This document shows positions 13,806-62,370 of a stretch of 64,000 bases of DNA, piece by piece. A program made the translations under genes and the position numbers. Under the pieces are notes generated by a model. That model saw only the letters and a program-made list of their open reading frames with translations, was not told where the DNA came from and did no database searches. Source of the stretch: a virus (lineage: Duplodnaviria; Heunggongvirae; Uroviricota; Caudoviricetes); the IMG/VR virus record IMGVR_UViG_2526164631_000023. One strand, 5' to 3'. Numbering within the stretch: position 1 is the first letter of the stretch; every line of letters starts with the position of its first letter.

Positions 13806-14028
13806 TATGTGTGCTGTAGGGAAAGGTTTACGTTAAATGTGTGCTGCCGGGAAACCCCATTGCTCAAGATGTGTTGTAGAGGGAATGGTAATGGCAACAT
13901 GTGTGCTGGAGGGGAATTTCGCATGTAAAGAGCGTCATTTATCCCTCCAGCACACATCTGAAATAAGCAATCCTCTGAAATTCCCTCCACCACACATCCA
14001 GACATGAAACTATCCCTTCAGCACACAT
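13806..14028. repeat. incA-like iteron array downstream of repA: ~7 RepA iterons in both orientations
   Basis: ATGTGTGCTG(t/c/g)(a/c)GGGAA copies at 13807, 13836, 13869, 13899 and reverse copies CAGCACACAT at 13948, 13989, 14020. Confidence 0.8.
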
Positions 14029-14892
14029 TTAATCTGTTGGTTTAAGTTTCGGATTCCGAGAGTGAACGATAATGAAGTTTTCACGACCTTGCTTTTCAAT
14101 GGTGCAATCGAGATAACCTATTGTTTTTAACTGGTCTATAGCTTTTTTTATCGTTCTGTTTTGCTCACTTACCGATGACATCAAGGCTAATCTTTCACGT
14201 ATTCTGGCAAATGAAATAGGTATTGGACGTGCCGGGAGGCTTTCTATAAAGGTATATATGGCCTGGGCTGCTTCTTTTTTAGGTAAAGCGCGAAGTGCGT
14301 GTTGCTGTAGAAGCACCCGATAGTCTAGCTGGAAGATTTCCCATAACTTGGAATCAGCCTCCAGTTCAACGACATCTGTTTCAAAGTCAAAATATCCCGT
14401 TTTAAGCAGGCCAGTATTGTAGCTTCCACGAGCACTTTTCCCTCTTTTGAATGAGATGCCTTTGTTGCGTAACCGACCTAAAGAATCGTGGATCGTGTTT
14501 CTTAATTTCCCATCAAGTCGCTTAGATGGAAATCCGCACGCCTTTGCAAATTCTTGAAAAGAAAGGCGAATTGTATTCGATGATAAGCCATACTTGCTAA
14601 ATGAGTAGATTACCCCAATCCAGACTTTGAAATCAGTATCCATGTCCAAGCGAGGGCCAGTGATCTTGATGTTGTCGTAGCCTTCTGCTTGAGCTATTTC
14701 CAATTTGGAAAAAACAGATGATGCATCTATCTCGTTGTTTTCACCCTGTTTTTTAGTTGGTTTAGGGACGAAAACACCAAGCCGCATAAGTGCGACAGGT
14801 TGAACAGTATTGTTCGAATTAACTGTTAATTCTTTAGCCTTGCTTTCAATGTCAGCATAAAGAATATCAGAGATAAATGACTTATCCATCAA
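14029..14892 (-). CDS. repA: Plasmid replication initiator RepA (P1 R-replicon type)
   Basis: 287 aa beginning MMDKSFISDILYADIESKAKELTVNSNNTVQPVALMRLGVFVP, closely matching P1 RepA as remembered; flanked by cognate iterons. Confidence 0.85.
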   Translation of the reverse strand: MMDKSFISDILYADIESKAKELTVNSNNTVQPVALMRLGVFVPKPTKKQGENNEIDASSVFSKLEIAQAEGYDNIKITGPRLDMDTDFKVWIGVIYSFSKYGLSSNTIRLSFQEFAKACGFPSKRLDGKLRNTIHDSLGRLRNKGISFKRGKSARGSYNTGLLKTGYFDFETDVVELEADSKLWEIFQLDYRVLLQQHALRALPKKEAAQAIYTFIESLPARPIPISFARIRERLALMSSVSEQNRTIKKAIDQLKTIGYLDCTIEKQGRENFIIVHSRNPKLKPTD

Positions 14893-14949
14893 TAAGTTAC
14901 CGTCATGTTGTGAATAAAGTTTACGACAGTGGATATCCGGCTTTTTTTC

Positions 14950-15050
14950 CCATCAGCACACATCCTACATCCCGCCAGCACACATGTAAAACCCTCCAGC
15001 ACACATATTTTTCCCGTCAGCACACATCGTTCTCCCTCCAGCACACATCT
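14950..15050. repeat. incC-like iterons: five direct CAGCACACAT-containing repeats at ~21-bp spacing upstream of repA
   Basis: Copies at about 14954, 14976, 14997, 15019 and 15039. Confidence 0.8.
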
Positions 15051-15089
15051 GAATAGTGGTTAAAGCCTTATGTGGCGCGGCCTGAAGAG

Positions 15090-15160
15090 CTACGGGATCT
15101 ATTTGGTACTATATGGATCTAATCAGGATCTATATATTGGATCTATCCTGTGGATAAAAA
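15090..15160. promoter_or_regulatory. oriR core: GATC repeats and a DnaA box
   Basis: gggATCTatttggtactatatgGATCTaatcagGATCTatatattgGATCTatcc then TGTGGATAA (reverse complement TTATCCACA) at 15149-15157. Confidence 0.65.
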
Positions 15161-15243
15161 AGAAGAATTACAAAGCTCCACCCAATTTCACACACTACCT
15201 ATCCTCCAACGAATAAACAGACATCTGCTTATCGGAGGAATAC

Positions 15244-23153: not shown

Positions 23154-26100
23154 TTATGGGTGCTGATAAAACGAACAACATAATGACACTATCCTCTGGT
23201 GTCTCACAGCCGTTGCTTGCTGATGTTCAATATTTCGAACTCTATAGTAGTTCGGCTCTTAACAGAAAACTTAAAAATATTGTTTTGCCGGGCTTTTACT
23301 GTGGATTTGAACCAGTTCCCGGCGCAGGGTTGAGAGTCCGTATAACTTCTGAAAACTCAGAAGGTAAAGGGGCTGCTTCAGTAGATGTAAATAATGTTCA
23401 GATATCCGTTCAGCAAATAGAAGATGTGACTGTCTCGGTAAAGGCTGGGGCTACCAACATTATTGTGCTAGAAGCCAATTTTGAACATGGTGTAAAAACG
23501 ACACAGGTAGAGAGCGCATCTTCTGTCAGTGCTGCAAGAATTTACGCGCGTACGGACAATACTATTGGGCAGAATCAAATTGAATTATGTCGAGTTATCG
23601 TGCCTAACGGCGCAACGGCTGTGACGAAAGAAATGATTGTGCTTAAATACCGGGTTAACCGTGCTGTTGGTGTCGAATTCTCTAATGAAATAAGCAGTAC
23701 AGAAGAAAGAAAAGCGGCTACACCTCTGGCTGTCAAAACTCTCCATGATTTGGTTGATACAAAAGCTCCGCTCGATAGTCCACATCTGTCAGGTACGCCG
23801 ACAGCACCTACGGCCTCACAAGGCACAAATAGCACGCAGATTGCAAATACAGCCTTTGTTAAGGCAGCTATAACTGCACTTATCAACGGTGCACCTGGCA
23901 CACTGGATACGCTGAAAGAAATAGCGGCTGCGATCAATAACGACCCGAATTTCAGCACAACTATCAACAATGCCCTGGCTCTCAAAGCGCCTTTGGCAAG
24001 CCCGGCGTTCACAGGTACGCCGACAGCACCTACGGCCTCACAAGGCACAAATAGCACGCAGATTGCTACGACCGCTTATGTAAGAGCTGCCATATCCGCA
24101 TTGGTTGGTTCATCACCAGAAGCTCTTGATACCCTGAATGAGCTTGCCGCAGCACTTGGTAATGACCCGAACTTTGCGACAACAATGACAAATGCGCTGG
24201 CAGGCAAACAGCCTCTGGATGCAACTTTAACCGCTCTTGCTTCCCTTGCGACTGGTGCAAACAAACTGCCTTATTTCACGGGTAAGGATACGGTAGCTCA
24301 GACTGATTTAACGTCAGTCGGTCGCGATATTCTGGCTAAAACAAGCATACTGGCCGTTATCCAATACCTTGGTTTAAGAGAACTCGGTACCAGCGGTGAA
24401 AAGATCCCCCTGTTAAGCACAGCTAACACATGGAGTGCGCGCCAGACTTTCAACGGCGGGATCACCGGGGCGCTGACAGGGAACGCCGACACCGCGACGA
24501 AATTGAAAACCAAAAGGTCGCTTCAAGTTGACCTCCAAAGTGATAACGCCATCGACTTTGATGGTTCATCAAATGCTCTTCTGGGCATAAAAGGTATTTT
24601 ACCAATTACTCATGGGGGATTAGGTGCATCCAGCGTCTCTGGAGGGCGTACTAATCTTGGATTAGGTGTTGCGGACGTCCCCCAATTTAAGGGTATCAAT
24701 CTTGTTAACTCAACAGACGCTGATTTAGCCGCGTCAGGGATTGTAAGTGGTTATCTGAATAATTCAGCTGGGGTACAGAGGAGTCGTTTCAGAATTTATT
24801 CAGAGATAAGGAGTGGCAACCGCTCATGGCTGACGTTACATCTACAATCTGATACCAACACCAATAAATATGCCGGATTAGACATTGACGGTAACTTTCT
24901 GATTACCGGAGATAGCAAATGCCGAGCATTAGAACCAACTGATGCAGCGTTAACAAGAAAAAATATTGATGTTTACAGCAAAGCCGAAGTAGACCTTAAA
25001 AAAGGGATGAAATTCACCAGAGTCAATGCTCCTTCTGGAGCTGAAGAGGGTAAATTCTATCCTGTAGTCATCAAGAGATCTGCAACGAGCAATGGTGAAC
25101 TTGCTTCTCGGGTTATTATTTCCACTGCGTCGCGCCAAGCTGCACATCGCATGAACAACTGCGAATTCAATGGTTTTGTGATGCCTGCTGGTTGGAGTGA
25201 CAGAGGGCGGTACGCATACGGGATGTTCTGGCAATATCAGGATGCAGAACGGGCGATTCATTCTATTGCGATGAGCAATAAAGACGATGAAGTTAGCTCA
25301 GTTTTTTATATTGAAGGCGGAGCATTTCCAGTATGCGTTCTTGTGGAGGAGGGGCTTTCTGTTGTTGTCCCTACAACGGATTATATTGTTGGACAAACCA
25401 CATACAAATGGGGGGCTACCAACCCTAAAGCTGAATGTATAGCTGCCGACATAATTATTGATTTTAGCAATGGTCGTGGTTTCTATAGCTCTGGAAACCT
25501 CAATGGTAATGCTGCAACAGCAACTAAATTACAGACCGCCAGAACAATCAACGGAGTAACCTTCGATGGCACTACTGATATTTCGTTGACACCAGAGAAC
25601 ATTGGCGCGCTGTCTCTATCCGGAGGCACATTATTAGGAGGTCTGACAGCTCCATTACTTACCACTAAAAGCGATCTTATTTTTAGTAGCCATACAAGCC
25701 GTCATATCCGCTTTACATATACGAAAAATGACGGCACAACACTAACTGATGGGTACATATTTAAAGATGGCGTCGATAACCCTAACAGACGACCAGGCAT
25801 CCGGATAAATTGTGCTGCGCCGAATAAAGAAACCGGCAATGGTACTAATTCAGGTGATTGGATATTCGGTGAAGATGGCATTTTTACCATGCCGGGTGGC
25901 ACTGTTCTTCGGGGAGGAATCAATAGCAATGGCGTGCCGCAAAGTGAGTATAAACATGACATGCTCACGTCAGTTGTTGACGATGCAAAAATGTATCTGC
26001 GACGTTTCCGCTCCAGCACAGGTGCAAGCATATGGCATGAAACAATAGAGAATAATGTTTATCGCTTATGCACAGGAACAACTGACGCTCAGGAAGAGTT

Positions 26101-27475
26101 AGTCTTGAGGACTGGTTCCTATGCGAAATTCGCTGGCGAGATTATTTCCAAATCGGCGAATGGTCTGCGCATTGTCTATGGCAACTATGGATTCTTTATC
26201 CGAAACGATGGTTCAAGCACATACTTCATGTTGACCGATTCGGGTAACAGCCTAGGAACCTATAATAGGTTAAGGCCGCTTATCATTAACAATGCCAATG
26301 GTGCTGTTACGATCGGTAATGGACTCAATGTTACTGGCGGCATCAATGGTAGTTTGAACGGTAATGCTGCAACTGCAACAAAACTGCAAACAGCACGCAC
26401 AATAGGCGGTGTGTCATTCGATGGCTCCGCCAATATCAACCTGCCGGGTGTAAACATTGCTGGTAACCAGAACACAACCGGTAATGCAGCGACAGCGACC
26501 AAGTTGCAGACAGCATGTACTATCAACGGCGTCTCGTTTGATGGTTCTAAAGATATTGAACTTAACCCACGGTCTATAGGCACGATCAACTCCACAACAA
26601 TGTCTTTTAGTGGTGGTGCTGGATGGTTCAAGCTAGCAACTGTAACCATGCCACAGGCCAGTTCCGTGGTTTACATAAGCCTGATTGGTGGTGCAGGGTA
26701 TAACGTTGGCTCCCCGCATCAAGCAGGCATCTCTGAGCTGGTTCTGCGTGCCGGAAATGGAAATCCAAAAGGTATTACTGGTGCATTATGGCGACGGACC
26801 TCGGTTGGATTTACTAATTTTGCATGGGTGAATACATCTGGTGATACCTATGATGTTTATGTTGAAATAGGTAATTACGCCACAGGTGTTAATATTCAGT
26901 GGGATTATACCAGTAACGCCAGCGTAACGATTCATACATCACCAACTTATACAGCGAATAAACCAACAGGCCTGACAGATGGAACTGTATATGTAATTTA
27001 CAGTTCGCACATTAAACCGACTGCTGCTGATGTTGGGGCGTTGTCATTATCTGGAGGTCAATTGAATGGTGCACTGGGCATCGGAACATCCAGTGCTCTT
27101 GGCGGTAACTCGATTGTTTTGGGTGATAATGACACGGGCTTTAAACAAAATGGCGACGGTAATCTGGACGTTTATGCTAATAACGTCCATGTTATGCGCT
27201 TTGTCTCCGGCAGCATTCAAAGTAATAAAACCATAAATATTACAGGGCGTGTTAACCCCTCGGATTACGGTAACTTTGATTCCCGTTATGTGAAAGATGT
27301 TCGCCTGGGTACGCGTGTTGTTCAATTGATGGCGCGTGGTGGTCGTTATGAAAAAGCCGGACACGCAATTACCGGATTAAGAATCATTGGTGAAGTAGAT
27401 GGCGATGATGAAGCCATCTTCAGACCAATACAAAAATACATCAATGGCACATGGTATAACGTCGCACAGGTGTAA
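23150..27475 (+). CDS. Tail fibre protein S: constant N-terminal part fused to the currently expressed variable C-terminal cassette
   Basis: 1441 aa with repeated GNAATATKLQTARTI(N/G)GV(S/T)FDGS motifs and C-terminal ..INGTWYN; shares internal segments with reverse-strand cassette. Confidence 0.8.
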   Translation: MIMGADKTNNIMTLSSGVSQPLLADVQYFELYSSSALNRKLKNIVLPGFYCGFEPVPGAGLRVRITSENSEGKGAASVDVNNVQISVQQIEDVTVSVKAGATNIIVLEANFEHGVKTTQVESASSVSAARIYARTDNTIGQNQIELCRVIVPNGATAVTKEMIVLKYRVNRAVGVEFSNEISSTEERKAATPLAVKTLHDLVDTKAPLDSPHLSGTPTAPTASQGTNSTQIANTAFVKAAITALINGAPGTLDTLKEIAAAINNDPNFSTTINNALALKAPLASPAFTGTPTAPTASQGTNSTQIATTAYVRAAISALVGSSPEALDTLNELAAALGNDPNFATTMTNALAGKQPLDATLTALASLATGANKLPYFTGKDTVAQTDLTSVGRDILAKTSILAVIQYLGLRELGTSGEKIPLLSTANTWSARQTFNGGITGALTGNADTATKLKTKRSLQVDLQSDNAIDFDGSSNALLGIKGILPITHGGLGASSVSGGRTNLGLGVADVPQFKGINLVNSTDADLAASGIVSGYLNNSAGVQRSRFRIYSEIRSGNRSWLTLHLQSDTNTNKYAGLDIDGNFLITGDSKCRALEPTDAALTRKNIDVYSKAEVDLKKGMKFTRVNAPSGAEEGKFYPVVIKRSATSNGELASRVIISTASRQAAHRMNNCEFNGFVMPAGWSDRGRYAYGMFWQYQDAERAIHSIAMSNKDDEVSSVFYIEGGAFPVCVLVEEGLSVVVPTTDYIVGQTTYKWGATNPKAECIAADIIIDFSNGRGFYSSGNLNGNAATATKLQTARTINGVTFDGTTDISLTPENIGALSLSGGTLLGGLTAPLLTTKSDLIFSSHTSRHIRFTYTKNDGTTLTDGYIFKDGVDNPNRRPGIRINCAAPNKETGNGTNSGDWIFGEDGIFTMPGGTVLRGGINSNGVPQSEYKHDMLTSVVDDAKMYLRRFRSSTGASIWHETIENNVYRLCTGTTDAQEELVLRTGSYAKFAGEIISKSANGLRIVYGNYGFFIRNDGSSTYFMLTDSGNSLGTYNRLRPLIINNANGAVTIGNGLNVTGGINGSLNGNAATATKLQTARTIGGVSFDGSANINLPGVNIAGNQNTTGNAATATKLQTACTINGVSFDGSKDIELNPRSIGTINSTTMSFSGGAGWFKLATVTMPQASSVVYISLIGGAGYNVGSPHQAGISELVLRAGNGNPKGITGALWRRTSVGFTNFAWVNTSGDTYDVYVEIGNYATGVNIQWDYTSNASVTIHTSPTYTANKPTGLTDGTVYVIYSSHIKPTAADVGALSLSGGQLNGALGIGTSSALGGNSIVLGDNDTGFKQNGDGNLDVYANNVHVMRFVSGSIQSNKTINITGRVNPSDYGNFDSRYVKDVRLGTRVVQLMARGGRYEKAGHAITGLRIIGEVDGDDEAIFRPIQKYINGTWYNVAQV
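24357..24382. other. gix/cix-like 26-bp recombinase crossover site (site A), in frame inside the fibre gene
   Basis: TTATCCAATACC TT GGTTTAAGAGAA matches remembered Gin-site TTATCCAAAACCTCGGTTTACAGGAA at ~20/26; encodes VIQYLGLRE. Confidence 0.5.
26132..26365. repeat. 234-bp inverted repeat, copy 1 (inside S), ~98% identical to reverse complement of 29167-29400
   Basis: Both copies encode EIISKSANGLRIVYGNYGFFIRNDGSSTYFMLTDSGNSLGTYNRLRPLIINNANGAVTIGNGLNVTGGINGSLNGNA. Confidence 0.8.
26196..26221. other. Candidate crossover site B inside the inverted repeat
   Basis: TTATCCGAAACG AT GGTTCAAGCACA; left half fits Hin-family half-site; inverted copy at 29310-29335. Confidence 0.3.
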
Positions 27476-27478
27476 ATT

Positions 27479-28006
27479 ATGCAGCATTTAAAAAATATTA
27501 AGTCAGGAAATCCAAAAACAAAAGAGCAATATCAGCTAACAAAGAATTTTGATGTTATCTGGTTATATACAGAAGACGGTAAAAACTGGTATGAGGAAGT
27601 AAATAACTTTCAGGACGACACCATAAAGATTGTTTACGATGAAAATAATATTATTGTCGCCATCACCAAAGATGCATCCACGCTTAACCCTGAAGGTTTT
27701 AGCGTCGTTGAGGTTCCCGATATTACAGCCAACCGCCGCGCTGATGATTCAGGAAAGTGGATGTTTAAGGATGGAGCTGTAGTTAAACGGATTTATACGG
27801 CAGACGAGCAACAACAACAGGCCGAATCACAAAAGGCCGCATTGCTTTCCGAAGCTGAATCAGTCATCCAACCGCTGGAACGCGCTGTCAGGCTGAATAT
27901 GGCAACAGACGAGGAACGCACACGACTGGAAGCATGGGAACGCTACAGTGTTCTGGTCAGCCGTGCGGATACGGCAAATCCTGAATGGCCACAAAAACCA
28001 GAGTAA
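27479..28006 (+). CDS. Tail fibre assembly chaperone (U/Tfa) for the current cassette
   Basis: 175 aa; N-terminal half ~70% identical to reverse-strand paralog 28035..28568; starts 4 nt after S stop. Confidence 0.8.
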
Positions 28007-28010
28007 AAAT

Positions 28011-28030
28011 TAAGGCCCGATAGCGGGCCT
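28011..28030. terminator. Bidirectional hairpin between convergent U and U' genes
   Basis: aaggcccgatagcgggcctt: 7-bp stem aggcccg/cgggcct. Confidence 0.45.
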
Positions 28031-28034
28031 TCTC

Positions 28035-28568
28035 TCATTCTGGTTGTTCGGGAAACGTTACTGGCAGGCCGGAAGTGTCTGTAGATTCGACTTTCTGCGC
28101 ATAGAGCATCCACTCGGTTAATTTTTGTTTATTCTCGTCGGAAATGATGCCCAGCCGTAGCTGTGAGTCCCATAGCTGGGTTTTATCCCTGACAAGTTGC
28201 AACAGGCTTTGCTTTTCATTTTCCGCTTGTTGCCTCTGCTCTTCCTCGGTATAAGTTCGCTTTATCACTACGCCATCTTTGAACATCCATTTCCCCGAAA
28301 TATCAGCCCGGCGATTTGCTGTAATATCAGGTAATTCAACGACGCTTGCACCCTCTGGATTAATTGCTGAAACATCCTTTTCAATACAAATAATAACGCC
28401 GTTATGGTCATAGACCATTTTCAAAGTGTCTGGCTGGAAATTCTTTTGTTCCTCATACCAGTTTTTTCCATCATCTGAATAAAGCCATTTGATGTTAAAT
28501 TGCTTTGTTAGCTGGTATTGCTCTTTTGTTTTAGGGTTGCCAGCAGTAATGTTTTTTAAGTGCATCAT
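28035..28568 (-). CDS. Alternative tail fibre assembly chaperone (U')
   Basis: 177 aa paralog of U on the opposite strand, directly downstream of the alternative fibre cassette. Confidence 0.8.
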   Translation of the reverse strand: MMHLKNITAGNPKTKEQYQLTKQFNIKWLYSDDGKNWYEEQKNFQPDTLKMVYDHNGVIICIEKDVSAINPEGASVVELPDITANRRADISGKWMFKDGVVIKRTYTEEEQRQQAENEKQSLLQLVRDKTQLWDSQLRLGIISDENKQKLTEWMLYAQKVESTDTSGLPVTFPEQPE

Positions 28569-28570
28569 CG

Positions 28571-30241
28571 TTAAATACTCCCCGCGTTATACCACGTCCC
28601 ATTAATGCAATACTGAATTGGCCTTGCCTGAGTTGTATCAATTAATTCATCACGGTTTCCGTTAACTGAACCCGTAACGACATAACCTGACCTGTCAGAC
28701 CAGCCGGGACCATTCCATGTCTGAACAGATGACAGACCGCCAAGGCGAATACCTGTAATAAACCTTGAGTTACATTCTGCCTGCGTGTATGCACCAACAT
28801 CTCCCGCAGAGGGTTTGCGGGTCGTGGTGTAAAACTCTGACCAGTCAGCCTCAAATCCATAACCATCACGCGCTGAACGATAAAAGATACCGCCGTTTTT
28901 ATAATTCACGCGGAACTGTACAGCAGGGCAACTCCCCGCATTCATATTAAAGTGGAGGATTAATGTCGATGCGCCACCAATGTTTGCGTTATAGACCCCG
29001 CTATTCCAGTTCCAGCCAACAGCTTTATCATTTGCGACCCTGCTTCCTGTTTGCCCTAGAGCAAACGCACCTACATGACTTGCTTTTAATGTGATATCGG
29101 AGGAACCATCAAAAGCCACGCCACTTATTTTTCTGGCAGTTTGTAACTTTGTAGCCGTAGATGCATTACCGTTCAAACTACCATTGATGCCGCCAGTAAC
29201 ATTGAGTCCATTACCGATCGTAACAGCACCATTGGCATTGTTAATGATAAGCGGCCTTAACCTATTATAGGTTCCTAGGCTGTTACCCGAATCGGTCAAC
29301 ATGAAGTATGTGCTTGAACCATCGTTTCGGATAAAGAATCCATAGTTGCCATAGACAATACGAAGACCATTCGCCGATTTGGAAATAATCTCGCCAGCAG
29401 CAGTTAATCCGCCAGTTAACGCTCCTCCAGATAGTGGTAAAGCTCCGACATCAGCCGCAGTAGGCTTGTTTTTAGTGTTATACGCTCTGCGCCATCCTGG
29501 TGAATAACTTGTGCCATTAGACACATAGATAAATTCAGCATTAGTGAGTGCGCCAGATACACTTGTCATCGTTGCCGTTGTTATTCGAATGGTGTAATTG
29601 TTGGTATTATTGCTGAATACTTCTATCACAGCACCCGCCAGTGGAATAATGCCACAACCAGTTTCACTGTCTGGTATGGATGCACTATTTGCATACGCCC
29701 AAGCACAACGAGCGAACCATGCTTTCGTATTGAATGCCCCGTTATTTTGCAACAAAGTAACTAACTGGGCTGTCGTTATTGACTCACCGTTATTACCTGT
29801 TGTTAACCAACCAGTAGGAGATGCCGGGCAACCAATATTTGCTGGTGACAGTGAAATATTCGCAGAACCGTCAAATGAAACCCCATTAATGGTACGTGCT
29901 GTTTGTAATGTCGTGGCAGACGCCGCATTTCCTGTTGTGTTCTGGTTGCCCGTTGTATTTACGCCCGGTATGGAGTCTTTCGATGTATAGACCTGTGCCC
30001 ACTCAGACCATGCCGCACCTGTGTAATCTCTTCGGGAGCGAATGAAAACTGGCGCATGTGCACCGCTCGTACCACTCCAGCCAATAAGCAACTCGCCCTC
30101 ACCAGCAGCACTCGCACCTTTCATGTGCAATACGTTGCCATACGTGGTCGGGTAGCTATTGTTGTACGCCTCGTACATTTGAATGCCAGCAGCGCCTTGA
30201 GTAGAGCCGCTTAACGCCGTAACTCGGCCACGAGATACCAA
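28571..30241 (-). CDS. Alternative tail fibre C-terminal cassette (Sv'): promoterless, no credible start
   Basis: Track start is TTG without SD and frame closes 15 codons upstream; fibre repeats (GNQNTTGNAASATTLQTARTINGVSFDGS) and C-terminal ..INGTWYNAGSI. Confidence 0.7.
   Translation of the reverse strand: MVSRGRVTALSGSTQGAAGIQMYEAYNNSYPTTYGNVLHMKGASAAGEGELLIGWSGTSGAHAPVFIRSRRDYTGAAWSEWAQVYTSKDSIPGVNTTGNQNTTGNAASATTLQTARTINGVSFDGSANISLSPANIGCPASPTGWLTTGNNGESITTAQLVTLLQNNGAFNTKAWFARCAWAYANSASIPDSETGCGIIPLAGAVIEVFSNNTNNYTIRITTATMTSVSGALTNAEFIYVSNGTSYSPGWRRAYNTKNKPTAADVGALPLSGGALTGGLTAAGEIISKSANGLRIVYGNYGFFIRNDGSSTYFMLTDSGNSLGTYNRLRPLIINNANGAVTIGNGLNVTGGINGSLNGNASTATKLQTARKISGVAFDGSSDITLKASHVGAFALGQTGSRVANDKAVGWNWNSGVYNANIGGASTLILHFNMNAGSCPAVQFRVNYKNGGIFYRSARDGYGFEADWSEFYTTTRKPSAGDVGAYTQAECNSRFITGIRLGGLSSVQTWNGPGWSDRSGYVVTGSVNGNRDELIDTTQARPIQYCINGTWYNAGSI
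29167..29400. repeat. 234-bp inverted repeat, copy 2 (inside Sv')
   Basis: Reverse complement nearly identical to 26132-26365. Confidence 0.8.
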
Positions 30242-30265
30242 TGTATTAATGTTGGTTTAAGAGAA
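30240..30265. other. Second gix/cix-like site (site C), same orientation as site A
   Basis: AATGTATTAATG TT GGTTTAAGAGAA; right half and next ~130 bp identical to site A flank. Confidence 0.4.
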
Positions 30266-30568
30266 CTCGGTACCAGCGGTGAAAAGATCCCCCTGTTGAG
30301 TACGGCTAACACATGGAGTGCACGCCAGACTTTCAACGGCGGGATCACCGGGGCGCTGACAGGGAATGCCGACACCGCGACGAAATTGAAAACAGCACGC
30401 ACGATTGGCGGTGTGGTATTTGATGGCTCGGCCAATATCAACCTTCCAGGTGTAAATACAACAGGTAACCAGAACACCACCGGGAATGCTGCTACCGCGA
30501 CAAAACTTGCGACGGCAAGAAACATCAACGGTGTTAAGTTTGATGGCTCAGGCGATATCAAGGTTTAG
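30252..30568 (+). pseudogene. Third, short tail-fibre 3' cassette (S'') lacking a start codon; possible remnant
   Basis: First 142 bp ~96% identical to 24369-24510; encodes ..GLRELGTSGEKIPLLSTANTWSARQTFNGGITGALTGNADTATKLKTARTIGG..GDIKV; stop overlaps invertase stop. Confidence 0.5.
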
Positions 30569-39184: not shown

Positions 39185-39269
39185 TGTATTTATATACACT
39201 GTTGATCCTGGTGGATGGGATCGAGTAGGATCGCGGTCACTGCTCCGGTAGCGACTGCCAAAAAAGCAA

Positions 39270-39292
39270 AAGCCGCTGAGAAGCGGCTTTTT
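39270..39292 (+). terminator. Intrinsic terminator after candidate protease gene
   Basis: aagccgct gaga agcggctt followed by TTTT. Confidence 0.6.
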
Positions 39293-56513: not shown

Positions 56514-56620
56514 TGTTAGGTATTTAATATTAATTTTCTAATATAATCATCTTTTTACCAGTCTATACAGTTTTAACATTCTCATTATCATCCCCTCGGT
56601 CATTTCCTGCCGGGGGATTA

Positions 56621-57013
56621 ATGGAACAAATCAGCAGCGCAGAAATTGCGGATATCATGATCAGGGCTGACTGCTATCTGACAGTCACTGAAATTACCAC
56701 TCTCGCCAAAGAAAAATACCCTCATCTCCATGTTTCACGAGTAAGTGTAACTAACATCATTCGTCATTTTGTTCGTTCAAGCAGGGCAATCTGTGAGCTT
56801 GATGATCGTGTTTACCCACGAAAATACTGGTTGCATGGCCTGAACGGATATCAGTTCAAGGTGCGTGGGCGAACCCCTGAATACGGCAGTTTACTGGTTA
56901 AAAACTGTAGCAGGAAATCAGTCGAACAGGCGCGAAAAGAGCAACGAGAGCTGGTGGACATGGCGAATAAGCTGTGGAATGCCGCCGTTAAAAAGCGTGG
57001 TGTTGCTTTATGA
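56621..57013 (+). CDS. Hypothetical protein (130 aa), possibly DNA-binding
   Basis: ORF upstream of and overlapping (ATGA) pacA start; degenerate operator-like sequence at 56511-56550. Confidence 0.3.
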   Translation: MEQISSAEIADIMIRADCYLTVTEITTLAKEKYPHLHVSRVSVTNIIRHFVRSSRAICELDDRVYPRKYWLHGLNGYQFKVRGRTPEYGSLLVKNCSRKSVEQARKEQRELVDMANKLWNAAVKKRGVAL

Positions 57014-58374
57014 GTCTGGTTAATTGGGAGGAGCACCGCGCCCGCTTTATAGCGTTGCGTGAAGAAAAAGGGATCACTGTAAAGGAATACTGTGAGGAGC
57101 ATGGCCTTAGCTTCAATACAGCCAGAAAGCATCTCAATATGAAAAAAAATGAGGTGCGGTCGCAGGTAAAGACAACAAAAAAAAGCACCAAATCACCTGA
57201 AAAAAAACGGGCAGGAAGAGCAACAAAAAAGCAGGAAGAGGGTGCAGAAAAAACAAAATTTACAGAAATTGACAATTCGCAGGGCGCAGGTTCTTTCCGA
57301 AGTATGCCGAGAAAGAAAACTTCGGATCATGAAAATAATTTAAATAATAACAATGAGATAAAAGAATCCGTCAGGAGATCATTGCGCGAAAAAATGGCGA
57401 AAATGATCCCCGAAGAAGATAAAAGTGCCCCAAAAATTGAGGGATCTTCTGCAATGATCCCTGACGGTGCTGTGCAGCGTGCCACATTGCCAACTACGAA
57501 TGTGGCTCGCGATATGATGAAGAACGGCGCAGAAGAACACCTGCGGTTAGCAATTCAAATGGCGCAAGAGCGCGCACTTCAGTATCAAAGCATTGTTGAT
57601 CAGGAGGCCGAACGTCTACAGGCGGAAATAGACACCTTGGGCGATAAAGAGCCAGAAGGAATGCACCCTGGGCAGCGCCTTCTCGGTCTAATCAGTGACG
57701 CGGCCTACTACATGAATGATTTTATCAGTAGGTTGGCAGCTATATATCAGTCCGAACAAAAGCTGCGACAGGGGGATGAAAAGCTTCGTCAGAGCGCTCG
57801 CCAGCAAGCATTCAAAGAGGCTGAGGCCAGAGAAAAACTCGAATTAGCACGCCTACAGGCCGAACAGCGTGGCAAAGAGATTGAATATCGCATTGGCGCT
57901 GACGCACGCGCAGCCAGAGTTATCGCCGCCGCTATACGTATGCGTGAGCGCGAGGAACTGGATGATATCGGTGTTGCTGAATACATCGAGCGCCAGGGTG
58001 TCAGCGTCCCGGCTATCCTCGCGGCGCGCGCGGCGAAAGCTATCACTCTTCTCGAACCACCTGTTTCTGACGTCAATGATGTTGATGATGAACAGCTGGA
58101 CAAAGAGGCAAGGGAGTTTGCAACGCTTCAGGCTAACCATCCGCTATGGCTGGCAGAGCGCCGGGCGGATGTGGCAACCATTGTTGAAGAATTGGGTTGC
58201 GGAGATTACGACCGCAATGGCGAGCGTAAAGCTGGAGAATTCGAGGCCAACGACGAAGAGCTGGATATTGACCCTTCGGCAACGGCTGAAATTTACGGTG
58301 ATTATGATGCATCTGATGCAGGGTATGACGCCGGAGATGATGATATCGCGATAGAACCGCCGGAGGATGATTAA
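57010..58374 (+). CDS. pacA: Terminase small subunit, PacA-like (454 aa)
   Basis: Directly upstream of and overlapping the large terminase gene; N-terminal HTH-like region, acidic C-terminus; contains a GATC cluster. Confidence 0.5.
   Translation: MSLVNWEEHRARFIALREEKGITVKEYCEEHGLSFNTARKHLNMKKNEVRSQVKTTKKSTKSPEKKRAGRATKKQEEGAEKTKFTEIDNSQGAGSFRSMPRKKTSDHENNLNNNNEIKESVRRSLREKMAKMIPEEDKSAPKIEGSSAMIPDGAVQRATLPTTNVARDMMKNGAEEHLRLAIQMAQERALQYQSIVDQEAERLQAEIDTLGDKEPEGMHPGQRLLGLISDAAYYMNDFISRLAAIYQSEQKLRQGDEKLRQSARQQAFKEAEAREKLELARLQAEQRGKEIEYRIGADARAARVIAAAIRMREREELDDIGVAEYIERQGVSVPAILAARAAKAITLLEPPVSDVNDVDDEQLDKEAREFATLQANHPLWLAERRADVATIVEELGCGDYDRNGERKAGEFEANDEELDIDPSATAEIYGDYDASDAGYDAGDDDIAIEPPEDD
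57320..57605. other. Candidate pac site: cluster of six GATC-containing repeats inside pacA
   Basis: GGATCATG, AGATCATT, TGATCCCC, GGATCTTC, TGATCCCT, TGATCAGG within ~280 bp. Confidence 0.3.
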
Positions 58375-59882
58375 TGGCTGGCGGGCGCAAGGTTAAATGC
58401 GTCACCAGAGATCCACGCTGGCGCGATATGGTAATCAAATACCGCTACAACTTTACCCAGGCTGTTGTCGATATTTTTGGGATGTTCCCCTCCCACCAGC
58501 AGCAGCAGATCATTCAGTCCGTACAGGAAACGGGGAGTAGGACTACCGTCACGTCCGGACACGGAACGGGGAAGTCGTCCCTTACCGCGATGTTGCTGTT
58601 GATTTTTATGATCCTGTTCCCCGATGCCCGTGTCATCATTGTTGCTAACAAGATAGGCCAGGTAAAAACAGGCGTATTCAAATACGTTAAACAGTATTGG
58701 GCGAATGCAGTTAAGCGTCATGGGTGGTTGCAGACCTATTTTGTCCTCTCTGACACCATGTTTTATGAGCGCTCCCGTAAGGGGATTTGGGAAGTTCTCT
58801 GCAAAGGTTATCGACTCGGCAACGAAGAAGCGCTGGCGGGGGAACACGCGGCACATTTGCTTCTAATTCTGGATGAAGCATCTGGTATATCTGATAAGGC
58901 GATCGGCGTAATGACCGGTGCTCTTACTGAAGAAGATAACCGGATGTTGATGCTATCCCAGCCAACAAGGCCAAGTGGTTATTTCTACGATTCGCACCAT
59001 TCTCGAGCAAAAACCCCAGGCAACCCGAAAGGGATCTGGACAGCAATTGTTCTTAACTCGGAAGAATCACCGTTCGTCACACCACAATTCATCAAGGAGA
59101 AGCTTCTGGAATATGGCGGGCGCGATTCTATTGAGTACATGGTCAAGGTGCTTGGTCAGTTCCCACGAGAAATTAACGGCTATTTGCTTGGTCGTGATGA
59201 ATGCGATCGCGCTGCTCGCCGCAAGGTGTTGTTGGAGAAAAACTGGGGATGGGTGGCAACGGCTGACGTTGGTAATGGGCGAGATAAGTCGGTCCTCAAC
59301 ATCTGCAAGGTATCAGGTCACAGGGATAAGCGGCGCGTTGTTAACTTTAAGGTAATGGAGATGCCTGGCACTATGGACCCATTGGCCTTTGCTGACTTCA
59401 TATATAACGAATGTACGCCGGAAAAATACCCGAATATAACAATCGCGGTTGATGCTGATGGTTTTGGTTCTGATACGTGTGCGCAGTTGGTGCGTCGTGG
59501 TGCGAACCCGGTACGTATTCGGTGGGGAAAACCCATGTTTGCGAACAAAGACAGGGAGCGATTTGTTAATCAGCGTGCCTACGCAAATATTATGGCGCGT
59601 GATGCCATAAAGTCAGGGCGTATGCGGATAGACAGTGACCCTAAAACGGCAGAGCAAGCGTCAAAAATCCCCTTTTTACTGAATGAAGAGGGGAAAATGG
59701 CGATGATGCGCAAAGAGCACATGCGGCAAAAGCTAAACATCAAATCGCCTGACCGATGGGATACCTACTGCTTCACTATGCTGGTGGACTATGTGCCTGC
59801 TAATGAAGATATTGGTGCCGAAATGGCAACTTTCCGAGATCAGGTTCTGGCGGATATCGAAATGCCGGATCTGGATATATAA
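58374..59882 (+). CDS. pacB: Terminase large subunit, PacB-like (502 aa)
   Basis: Walker A TSGHGTGKSS, Walker B LLILDEASGI, C-terminal nuclease region with acidic residues (AVDADGFG). Confidence 0.8.
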   Translation: MAGGRKVKCVTRDPRWRDMVIKYRYNFTQAVVDIFGMFPSHQQQQIIQSVQETGSRTTVTSGHGTGKSSLTAMLLLIFMILFPDARVIIVANKIGQVKTGVFKYVKQYWANAVKRHGWLQTYFVLSDTMFYERSRKGIWEVLCKGYRLGNEEALAGEHAAHLLLILDEASGISDKAIGVMTGALTEEDNRMLMLSQPTRPSGYFYDSHHSRAKTPGNPKGIWTAIVLNSEESPFVTPQFIKEKLLEYGGRDSIEYMVKVLGQFPREINGYLLGRDECDRAARRKVLLEKNWGWVATADVGNGRDKSVLNICKVSGHRDKRRVVNFKVMEMPGTMDPLAFADFIYNECTPEKYPNITIAVDADGFGSDTCAQLVRRGANPVRIRWGKPMFANKDRERFVNQRAYANIMARDAIKSGRMRIDSDPKTAEQASKIPFLLNEEGKMAMMRKEHMRQKLNIKSPDRWDTYCFTMLVDYVPANEDIGAEMATFRDQVLADIEMPDLDI

Positions 59883-59910: not shown

Positions 59911-60948
59911 TTACCAGAGCTTTGCGGCGTGCTGCGTTTGGGGGAATGTGTATCCGTAACGTTCTTCGATTGCTTTGCCGTATTTTTTACGCGCTTCATT
60001 CAGTTTGATGCCGGTCAGGTCGTCTCCAGAGGCCATCATTACGTCTAACAATTCCAGATCCATTTTATCCAGCCTTGCCATTGCTTCACGCGATGTACGA
60101 ATCTTACGTTCAATGATATGGCGAATGGCCGGATCGGCATCCTCCAGCATCTTAGCGGATTTCTGCTTAAGGTTTTCGTTGCGAATATCGATGTTCCTTA
60201 AGATGTACGACTTCGCAACGTAGCTTGGCTGGTGTTTTTCCAGGTCACGAACACGATATAAGTTAAAATCGCCGAGAAGGCTGCAAGGTACCGATTCGAC
60301 GCCAGAATAAATTGTAATGCTCCGGCGTTCACCAACATTATTGACAACGGGGATCGTTGTCTTCGGTAGTCTTGCGAAAACCAATGCGCCATGTGCGCCA
60401 ACTCTAAAGCGAGAAAGGGCATTGCTGCCTTCGATGTTTGTTGTCAGCACAACATCTGTATATGCCTCTTTACGCGCCCGGTAGATCTCGCCTTCAGGCT
60501 CAGCTTCAAAGAAGCGCTGTTCTTCTTCAAGAGCACCTACGATTTGAGAAAAAACCCTATTTTTCAGGCTTTTCTTTATGATTTTGTCGTATTTTTTGAG
60601 CAATTGCTCACGTGTAAATGTACGTGTTGTTGTAGCGCTTTGCACAACAACATGCGTGCTTTGATTGGTGTCCTCAATGATGAATGGGATCGGAGAATAT
60701 ACAGACTCAACAATGTTCGACGCTTTGCCGTCGGCATCGCGACACATGTCAACGAAGGCTTTCCATTCAGCAAGACATTTTTCAGCTTCTTCTAATATGT
60801 TTTGGTCATGCGTTAATGCAACATGGCGGAATTCCTCGCCAGCATAACTGGTATCATGGAAAACAGAGTTTGCGACCACCAGCTCTTTCCACCGTTCAGC
60901 GGTTTGCAGGAACCGTTTGTACTCTTTCTCGATCGACTTCTTACTCAT
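59911..60948 (-). CDS. Protein at the P1 c1 position (345 aa): candidate master repressor
   Basis: Divergent from the recombinase across the rox region; operator-like motif overlaps its upstream region; no sequence-level confirmation. Confidence 0.3.
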   Translation of the reverse strand: MSKKSIEKEYKRFLQTAERWKELVVANSVFHDTSYAGEEFRHVALTHDQNILEEAEKCLAEWKAFVDMCRDADGKASNIVESVYSPIPFIIEDTNQSTHVVVQSATTTRTFTREQLLKKYDKIIKKSLKNRVFSQIVGALEEEQRFFEAEPEGEIYRARKEAYTDVVLTTNIEGSNALSRFRVGAHGALVFARLPKTTIPVVNNVGERRSITIYSGVESVPCSLLGDFNLYRVRDLEKHQPSYVAKSYILRNIDIRNENLKQKSAKMLEDADPAIRHIIERKIRTSREAMARLDKMDLELLDVMMASGDDLTGIKLNEARKKYGKAIEERYGYTFPQTQHAAKLW

Positions 60949-61157: not shown

Positions 61158-61189
61158 TAACTTTAAATAATTGGCATTATTTAAAGTTA
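61158..61189. other. rox-type recombination site (Cre/lox-like 14-4-14 palindrome)
   Basis: TAACTTTAAATAAT TGGC ATTATTTAAAGTTA: perfect 14-bp inverted arms around 4-bp spacer; reverse complement of the rox sequence as remembered. Confidence 0.8.
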
Positions 61190-61341: not shown

Positions 61342-62370
61342 ATGAGTGAATTAATTATCTCTGGCAGTTCCGGTGGTTTTCTGCGCAACATTGGCAAAGA
61401 GTACCAGGAAGCCGCAGAAAACTTTATGCGGTTCATGAATGACCAGGGGGCTTATGCGCCGAATACTCTGCGCGACCTCCGGTTGGTGTTTCATTCCTGG
61501 GCGCGCTGGTGTCACGCTCGCCAGCTTGCCTGGTTTCCGATCTCACCAGAAATGGCCCGCGAGTATTTTCTTCAGCTGCATGATGCCGATCTGGCTTCGA
61601 CCACCATTGATAAGCACTACGCCATGCTGAACATGCTGCTTTCGCATTGTGGCCTTCCGCCACTTTCGGATGATAAAAGTGTTTCTCTGGCTATGCGGCG
61701 CATCCGGCGCGAAGCGGCAACTGAAAAAGGCGAACGAACAGGCCAGGCTATACCGCTTCGGTGGGACGATCTGAAACTGCTCGACGTCCTGTTGTCCAGG
61801 TCAGAACGGCTGGTAGACCTGCGCAACCGGGCTTTTCTCTTTGTTGCATACAATACGCTGATGCGTATGTCGGAAATATCGCGTATTCGTGTAGGTGATC
61901 TGGACCAAACAGGTGACACTGTCACGCTACATATTTCACACACGAAGACAATAACGACCGCCGCCGGGCTTGATAAGGTGCTTTCCCGTCGCACTACTGC
62001 TGTGCTGAATGACTGGCTGGATGTTTCCGGGCTTCGTGAACATCCTGACGCGGTGCTGTTCCCGCCGATACACCGTAGCAATAAGGCCAGGATTACGACA
62101 ACGCCCCTTACTGCACCTGCAATGGAGAAAATATTCAGCGACGCCTGGGTGTTGCTGAATAAAAGGGATGCCGCGCCAAACAAAGGGAGATACCGGACGT
62201 GGACCGGGCATAGTGCTCGTGTCGGGGCCGCTATCGATATGGCTGAAAAGCAGGTGTCTATGGTGGAGATCATGCAGGAAGGAACCTGGAAGAAACCGGA
62301 AACACTTATGCGGTATCTGCGCCGTGGCGGTGTGTCTGTGGGGGCTAATAGCCGCTTGATGGATTCGTAA
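61342..62370 (+). CDS. dre: Tyrosine site-specific recombinase of the Cre family (Dre-like)
   Basis: 342 aa with Cre-like blocks VSLAMRRIRRE, AFLFVAYNTLMRMSEISRIRVGDL, WTGHSARVGAAIDMA, LMRYLR (catalytic R..HxxR..Y); adjacent to rox-type site. Confidence 0.85.
   Translation: MSELIISGSSGGFLRNIGKEYQEAAENFMRFMNDQGAYAPNTLRDLRLVFHSWARWCHARQLAWFPISPEMAREYFLQLHDADLASTTIDKHYAMLNMLLSHCGLPPLSDDKSVSLAMRRIRREAATEKGERTGQAIPLRWDDLKLLDVLLSRSERLVDLRNRAFLFVAYNTLMRMSEISRIRVGDLDQTGDTVTLHISHTKTITTAAGLDKVLSRRTTAVLNDWLDVSGLREHPDAVLFPPIHRSNKARITTTPLTAPAMEKIFSDAWVLLNKRDAAPNKGRYRTWTGHSARVGAAIDMAEKQVSMVEIMQEGTWKKPETLMRYLRRGGVSVGANSRLMDS

Follow-up and report, generated by a model that had tools for sequence, protein, structure and literature searches.

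A cluster of short GATC-containing repeats lies within pacA, the small terminase gene of a D6-like phage-plasmid, and we consider it probable that it constitutes the pacase-binding, Dam-methylatable arm of a D6-type packaging (pac) site, the counterpart of the right arm of the pac site of phage P1. The cluster comprises five repeats between positions 57323 and 57461 of a 64,000-nucleotide stretch of tailed-phage DNA (IMG/VR record IMGVR_UViG_2526164631_000023), the whole of which we refer to as the window. Comparison of pacA genes shows that these five GATC repeats are under purifying selection at the level of the DNA. We favor the pac interpretation because the sites are conserved at the DNA level and because a GATC cluster is a trait shared with P1 and other pacA genes. 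Binding by PacA, dependence on methylation, the position of the cut and the direction of packaging are features that we infer by analogy with P1.

The gene in question is an open reading frame with 98.5% nucleotide identity, over the gene, to pacA of Escherichia phage D6. The D6 records label its counterpart ‘DNA pacase A subunit’ and place it among the neighbors lpa, pacA, pacB, c1, rox and dre. Megablast alignment of the whole window to D6 is mostly collinear, with window position 1 corresponding approximately to D6 position 60784. Given the identity to D6, the annotated neighbors and this collinearity, the window, by its sequence, belongs to a D6-like plasmid prophage of the phage P1 supercluster.

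57010-58374, plus strand: pacA (small terminase, pacase A subunit), 454 amino acids, 1365 nucleotides (nt), assigned from identity to D6 and the D6 annotation

GATC occurs at window positions 57325, 57377, 57405, 57443, 57456 and 57598, which correspond to pacA nt 316, 368, 396, 434, 447 and 589. These six sites span 277 bp, and the first five fall within 135 bp; a seventh pacA GATC, at 57072 (nt 63), stands apart from the cluster. On the top strand the six contexts are, in order, GGATCA, AGATCA, TGATCC, GGATCT, TGATCC and TGATCA. An initial annotation of the window had pointed to six GATC in about 280 bp, situated 300-600 nt into the small terminase gene, and both the count and the placement are borne out. 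It had delimited the candidate element as 57320-57605. Five of the sites are conserved and the sixth is not, so the element shrinks from 280 bp to approximately 138 bp (57323-57461) and consists of the following repeats.

57323-57331, minus strand: repeat 1, GATC at 57325 (nt 316), top strand CGGATCATG, minus-strand hexamer TGATCC
57374-57383, minus strand: repeat 2, GATC at 57377 (nt 368), top strand GGAGATCATT, hexamer TGATCT here and TGATCC in relatives of 68-74% identity
57402-57410, plus strand: repeat 3, GATC at 57405 (nt 396), AATGATCCC
57440-57449, minus strand: repeat 4, GATC at 57443 (nt 434), top strand GGGATCTTC, which is GGGATCATT in relative L006
57453-57461, plus strand: repeat 5, GATC at 57456 (nt 447), AATGATCCC

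Once oriented, all five sites fit a single word, AATGATCCC (equivalently GGGATCATT), with the hexamer TGATCC, and they follow one another in the order minus, minus, plus, minus, plus. Three of the oriented hexamers in the window are TGATCC, one is TGATCT and one is AGATCC; relatives carry four or five copies of TGATCC. Exact copies of AATGATCCC are found only twice in the 64-kb window, as repeats 3 and 5. The remark in the initial annotation that the repeat unit is unlike the P1 hexamer is correct, the conserved hexamer being TGATCC as against TGATCA/G in P1.

Conservation of the repeats was evaluated across a broad set of homologs. A tblastn search of a plasmid collection with PacA matched 142 records at 100% to ~25% identity, from which representatives were compared, and further comparisons included 31 IMG/VR loci and 36 genome loci located via alignment of PacB. 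The relatives in the codon alignment, L005, L006, L007, L008 and L009, have 93%, 74%, 73%, 69% and 57% amino acid identity to the window, respectively. In the D6-clade codon alignment, residues ~50-170 are the least conserved part of PacA, and the first five GATC (nt 316-447) form islands of identity within this most divergent part of pacA. When the window is compared with L006, L007 and L008, the invariant 4-mers of nt 140-560 amount to only 13%, and all five GATC are among them. The probability that all five would be invariant by chance is ~4e-5, with the sites treated as independent. All five are kept in 24 of 26 distinct D6-clade 5′ sequences.

The five GATC cores fall in codon phases 1, 2, 3, 2 and 3, and the peptides encoded at repeats 1-5 are S/A-D-H, R/G-S, M-I-P, G/R-S and M-I-P. 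Synonymous positions within the motif do not vary (G in the tcG/gcG codon that precedes GAT, A in gGA/aGA and in TCA, and C in ATC), whereas 64% of third positions near the motifs do. The occurrence of a single word in three reading phases and in both orientations points to a DNA-binding target rather than a peptide motif.

In repeat 1, at least 90% of the 26 distinct D6-clade sequences keep CGGATCA, its synonymous G ahead of GAT included. This repeat has no counterpart in the L009/L076 clade, where GATTCC is found, and represents a D6-clade gain relative to L009. Repeat 2 is kept in the D6 clade and in L009, and in the window it makes inverted repeats with repeat 3 and with repeat 5. The sequence AAATGATCC at repeat 3 is identical in all six aligned sequences (the window and L005-L009), and its context, GCGAAAATGATC, recurs at the first site of the right arm in pacA of Xenorhabdus and Rosenbergiella. 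The GATC of repeat 4 is kept across the D6 clade; in L006, repeats 4 and 5 together make up a perfect 9-3-9 palindrome, GGGATCATTGCAAATGATCCC. Repeat 5 is a 9-nt run (nt 444-452) that is invariant in 26 of 26 D6-clade sequences and is also kept in L009; D6-clade pacA has just five invariant runs of 8 nt or more within its first 720 nt, and this AATGATCCC is one of them. We also noted a 17/18-bp inverted repeat, 57368-57385 / 57451-57467 (CCGTCAGGAGATCATTGC / GCAATGATCCCTGACGG), that embeds repeats 2 and 5 and brackets 65 bp. Its extended arms are partly kept in L006 and L007.

The remaining two GATC of pacA are these.

57598-57601, no strand assigned: sixth GATC (nt 589), TTGATCAGG, with TGATCA at 57597
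57072-57075, minus strand: distal GATC (nt 63), GGGATCAC, of the TGATCC class, within the region coding for the helix-turn-helix

The sixth GATC is the only one of the six with the hexamer TGATCA. L006-L008 and 8 of the 26 D6-clade sequences have GACC or GACA in its place, with the amino acids V-D-Q/I the same or similar. We rejected it as part of the element since it is not conserved although the encoded residues are the same or similar, and from this alignment it probably lies outside the element. The distal GATC is invariant in the 26 D6-clade sequences, but it occurs in a generally conserved G-I-T coding stretch. It is absent from L009/L076 and sporadic in other lineages.

The pac site of P1 comprises 161 bp within pacA, with seven TGATCA/G Dam hexamers (in groups termed HEX4 and HEX3) and a site for integration host factor (IHF). 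It is bound when hemimethylated and cleaved when fully methylated, and synonymous mutation of the hexamers led to a ~9-fold loss of phage (PMC10028697). In the P1 record (NC_005856), the pac cleavage points are at pacA nt 275-285 and the IHF site is at nt 256-268. The P1 cuts are made by PacA and PacB and are staggered across roughly one helical turn. The TGATCA/G hexamers of this 1194-nt gene are at nt 195, 202, 214 and 229, and then at 325, 337, 348 and 376. Sternberg and Coulby are said to have placed the P1 pac site within pacA.

The D6-type repeats resemble P1 pac in several respects. They lie in the 5′ third of an orthologous pacA (nt 314-452 of 1365) with pacB adjoining, and they are multiple short repeats with a GATC (Dam) core, five in 138 bp, with TGATC common to both systems. 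The pacase genes are orthologous, with 55% amino acid identity for PacB and 21-24% for PacA (a full-length, end-to-end alignment with a pairwise E = 3e-12). A Cre/lox-type site occurs ~4 kb downstream in the same direction, and the phage encodes a Dam-class methylase. The suggestion in the initial annotation that the cluster occupies the location of P1 pac is roughly right, the D6-type cluster being ~100 nt further into the gene. PacA has an N-terminal helix-turn-helix at approximately residues 7-42, with a weak HTH_23 match there. A tblastn search of a phage collection with PacA returned D6 as the sole match at E <= 1e-5, and P1 PacA was recovered by direct pairwise comparison only.

Similar clusters are widespread in pacA. 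In 18 lineages, which span Escherichia, Shigella, Enterobacter, Pantoea, Rosenbergiella, Citrobacter, Leclercia, Xenorhabdus, Serratia, Vibrio and P1, the segment from nt 140 to 480 has one GATC per 54 nt, versus one per 261 nt elsewhere in the gene. Nearly all lineages have a left arm of three to seven TGATCA at a strict 12-bp period and a right arm of one to five sites, 70-200 bp downstream of the left arm. This enrichment and the arms across the 18 lineages indicate, from sequence comparison, that the GATC cluster is a family trait of pacA, and the sole experimentally studied member is a pac site, that of P1. Repeat 3 (GCGAAAATGATCC) and the initial site of the right arm in several TGATCA lineages (GCGAAAATGATCA) have a common context, which suggests that the D6-clade cluster is the counterpart of the P1 right arm. 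TGATCA arrays with an exact 12-bp period and up to six or seven copies, at pacA nt ~145-250, occur in L013, L014-L018, L020-L023, L028 and P1. They encode (Asp-His/Gln-x-x)n in PacA, so that a DNA signal dictates a peptide repeat in its presumed binder.

P22, SPP1 and other headful phages have their packaging start within the small-terminase gene, whose product recognizes it. We know of no methylation gating of the pac sites of P22, SPP1 or Gally-type phages. Unlike the D6-type cluster, these pac sites are not built of Dam sites, and the small terminases are unrelated in sequence to PacA. For Gally-type prophages, a coverage peak within termS has been reported (PMC9928086).

The sister clade of the D6 group consists of L009 (Enterobacter plasmid p60214CZ_1) and the IMG/VR loci L076 and L082. 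It uses the same TGATCC word in a P1-like, two-armed arrangement of three left and five right copies, with the left arm at nt 157, 169 and 181 (12-bp spacing). The TGATCC / AATGATCCC repeat is common to the two clades, and repeats 2, 3 and 5 are positionally conserved, as is a TGACAA island. Unlike the D6 clade, the sister clade has a left arm and has no site at either nt 63 or nt 316. A two-armed layout is found in L009, L011-L028 and P1. The sequence of the PacA recognition helix, LSFNTARKHLN, is identical in the D6 and sister clades, and every TGATCA-using lineage has a helix with NTARR[E/Y] or NTVRRQ. The co-variation of helix and repeat word in these sequences is suggestive and rests on a single evolutionary event.

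A more specific proposal, which we advance tentatively and with considerable doubt, is a one-armed D6 pac in which inverted pairs of the asymmetric 9-mer AATGATCCC would be read by a PacA with a changed recognition helix (NTARKH in place of NTARR[E/Y]), with no 12-bp-periodic left arm or central IHF site, and which would be orthogonal to P1. If true, this would be a natural second, non-cross-reacting Dam-gated packaging signal, with terminase and pac co-evolving within the terminase’s own coding sequence.

A candidate for the central part of the element lies upstream of the repeats.

57254-57276, no strand assigned: conserved GATC-free island, AAAATTTACAGAAATTGACAATT, pacA nt 245-267, candidate central or cleavage region

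Conservation of this island in the D6 clade is at least 90%, amid a variable stretch. In L009/L076 the TGACAA of the island is at nt 273, midway between the arms (the left ends at 181 and the right starts at 380). In P1 the reverse word, TTGTCA at nt 275, falls at the annotated cleavage site, halfway from the arm at 229 to that at 325. Analogy with these midway words would put the D6-type cut ~50-70 bp ahead of repeat 1, so that it may lie upstream of the interval proposed in the initial annotation, near 57254-57320.

The island does not fit the IHF consensus, WATCAANNNNTTR. The sole consensus match, TATCAAAGCATTG at 57583-57595, is perfect (~0.02 expected per 700 nt on both strands, by our own estimate) and sits immediately ahead of the sixth GATC, on the downstream side of the cluster. 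Even the relative with 93% identity does not conserve it, and we rejected it as part of the element because it is unconserved and on the wrong side of the cluster. An intrinsic bend due to A-tracts at nt 133-244 was also rejected, as their spacing of 23-35 bp is not in helical phase. One relative, L079 (IMGVR_UViG_2537562191_000026), is a 19-kb draft contig that ends at pacA nt 329, 13 nt past repeat 1. We did not use this end as packaging evidence because it is an isolated instance that probably reflects an assembly break with no bearing on pac.

If the cluster functions as pac, PacA would bind the repeats via its N-terminal helix-turn-helix, together with PacB. Before cleavage, host Dam and the phage D12-class methylase would have to methylate the GATC adenines of both strands, and this need would delay cutting of newly replicated, hemimethylated DNA. 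Such gating of cleavage by Dam we infer from the behavior of P1 pac. The D12-class N6-adenine methylase is orf63 of D6 (Pfam E = 1.9e-56), annotated as similar to P1 dmt; host Dam would methylate the cluster sites in any case. The pacase would cut nearby, most likely just upstream, from around the island at 57254-57276 up to the first repeat, and headful packaging would then proceed rightwards through pacB, c1 and rox. Packaging of P1 runs in the reading direction of pacA, towards lox. If the direction is the same here, rox would be placed in the terminal redundancy of the first headfuls, and Dre could circularize the injected DNA.

A number of observations weigh against the cluster being a pac site. 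The TGATCA/TGATCG hexamer of P1 is replaced by a TGATCC type within the 9-mer AATGATCCC, in mixed orientation. P1 has four plus three hexamers in two arms, separated by 96 bp (nt 229 to 325) in which the IHF site and the cut are located, whereas the D6 clade has one 138-bp cluster, and there is no such layout in the window. No left arm, even a degenerate one, was detected in pacA nt 64-313 (no GATC and no match to the 9-mer with <=2 mismatches), and no conserved IHF consensus was found near the cluster by consensus scan and alignment. Comparison of pacA genes partly supports the pac candidate of the initial annotation, as an element of the P1 type with a layout that departs from P1. Two natural variants each lack one site (repeat 2 in L058 and repeat 3 in L078), so either the loss of one site is tolerated or the two copies are defective. 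M-I-P, conserved twice, could reflect protein-level constraint. The phage methylase gene maps just beyond the window start and is outside the window, and no pac is annotated in the D6 GenBank records, where rox appears in both and cix in one. Finally, scan statistics simulated for the window are not significant, either for at least five GATC in 135 bp (P = 0.17-0.26) or for at least six in 277 bp (P = 0.36-0.43). Overall, in-window statistics for GATC, TGATCC and the 9-mer (<=2 mismatches) give P = 0.07-0.43. Given these values, no claim made here is based on counts alone.

Other explanations can be ranked in descending credibility as a Dam/SeqA element, protein constraint, a relic and chance. 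The cluster might be a Dam/SeqA-responsive regulatory element that times pacA and pacB, through SeqA on hemimethylated GATC or through an internal or antisense promoter, with pac located elsewhere. Conserved, clustered GATC are also a signature of Dam/SeqA-controlled elements, a second such cluster occurs at the plasmid origin (15096-15143), and the spacings of 13-52 bp within the pacA cluster are compatible with SeqA binding. However, no sigma-70-like promoter was found inside pacA in a scan of both strands of 56600-58500, which returned only one, upstream of lpa. The conserved unit of 9-12 bp (AATGATCCC) is longer than SeqA or Dam needs, and the homologous P1 clusters are a defined pac, and we regard the regulatory explanation as unlikely. 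A shade less credible is that the peptides of PacA (D-H, G/R-S and, twice, M-I-P) are conserved for the sake of the protein, with GATC as a by-product. Every site is in coding sequence and M-I-P is invariant twice in the D6-clade alignment, but the recurrence of the same DNA word in three codon phases and both orientations argues otherwise, as does the invariance of its synonymous third positions (ATC is never ATT or ATA) next to the 64% that vary nearby. The flanking residues are, moreover, among the least conserved of PacA, and in P1 and other lineages it is the 12-bp TGATCA arrays that dictate the (D-H/Q-x-x)n peptide.

Of comparably low probability is the idea that the cluster is a relic, a right arm left over from an ancestral pac with two arms and now in decay, and that packaging now starts elsewhere or with relaxed specificity. 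The left arm of L009/L076, P1 and all other lineages is indeed missing in the D6 clade, and losses of single sites occur. Yet the five sites are undecayed across lineages that differ at ~60% of the surrounding positions, and the D6 clade gained the site at nt 316 relative to L009. A chance local excess of a 4-mer we consider very improbable. The pacA cluster is the densest GATC cluster of the 64-kb window. The scan-statistic P of 0.17-0.43 would allow for chance, and total GATC is as expected (229 in the whole window, ~1 per 279 bp, with 233 ± 13 in shuffles), but neither the positional conservation (~4e-5) nor the five-fold higher GATC density that 18 lineages show at this position of the gene fits with it.

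Beyond pacA itself, the gene neighborhood includes a large terminase gene and a recombination site.

58374-59882, plus strand: pacB (large terminase, pacase B subunit), 55% amino acid identity to P1 PacB, D6 annotation, weak Terminase_6N match
61158-61189, minus strand: rox site (Dre recombinase target), exact 32-bp match, annotated in the D6 records

The rox site is 3.7 kb downstream of the GATC cluster along the reading direction of pacA, and the dre gene is at 61342-62370. The order pac-pacB-c1-rox-dre mirrors the P1 order pac-pacB-c1-lox, with lpa flanking as in P1. The lpa gene (56621-57013) and pacA overlap by ATGA (57010-57013), which leaves no room for LPpac, the intergenic late promoter that P1 has between lpa and pacA. 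Transcription of pacA must start upstream of or within lpa.

The second-densest GATC cluster of the window (15096, 15116, 15127 and 15140) is in a plasmid-origin-like region at 14940-15150, where five iterons (CCAGCACACAT-type) are followed by four GGATCTA repeats. The region adjoins a rep gene at 14029-14892 (minus strand) of the Rep_3 family (PF01051, E = 2e-6) and is probably a Dam-methylated origin. P1 oriR and oriC have clustered GATC repeats whose function depends on methylation state. The pacA cluster is like P1 oriR-type origin repeats in consisting of clustered, conserved GATC-containing repeats. Unlike the origin cluster of the window, which is non-coding and associated with iterons, Rep_3 and GGATCTA, it is in coding sequence, is built of AATGATCCC and has no iterons. 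Positions 13821-15188 have no megablast match to D6, and the flanks are 91-98% identical; judging from this alignment, the replication initiator/origin module appears to have been exchanged relative to D6.

Similarity to D6 is patchy at 24359-30396, around the invertible tail-fibre segment, where matches of ~150 bp to the D6 cix regions are duplicated, and by sequence this tail-fibre module differs from that of D6. Elsewhere, three GATC occur in 29 bp at 39204-39232 (TTGATCCTGG, GGGATCGAG, AGGATCGCG), intergenic between pro and repL, and are followed by a hairpin and T-run at ~39262-39292.

A P1-type GATC pac inside pacA is already known, and what appears to be altered here, from the sequences compared, is the repeat word, the mixed orientation and the missing left arm. 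We found no described D6 pac in the literature searched, although an earlier description is possible. P1 pac is the textbook methylation-gated packaging signal and a working part of P1 phagemid and P1-derived artificial chromosome (PAC) vectors. E. coli and Salmonella commonly carry D6-like phage-plasmids, as indicated by the 142 plasmid records that matched PacA. Such biology is to be expected of a P1 relative, and it is the altered architecture and possible orthogonality to P1 that are relevant to packaging and vector work. Even if the site proves ordinary, its annotation would be useful for predicting the starts of packaging and transduction in the D6-like plasmid family. Should it be the D6 pac, a compact fragment of ~200 bp may serve for D6-based transducing particles that are orthogonal to P1, and the site would show that a pac can switch to another repeat word and shed an entire arm, yet stay inside the gene of its reader.

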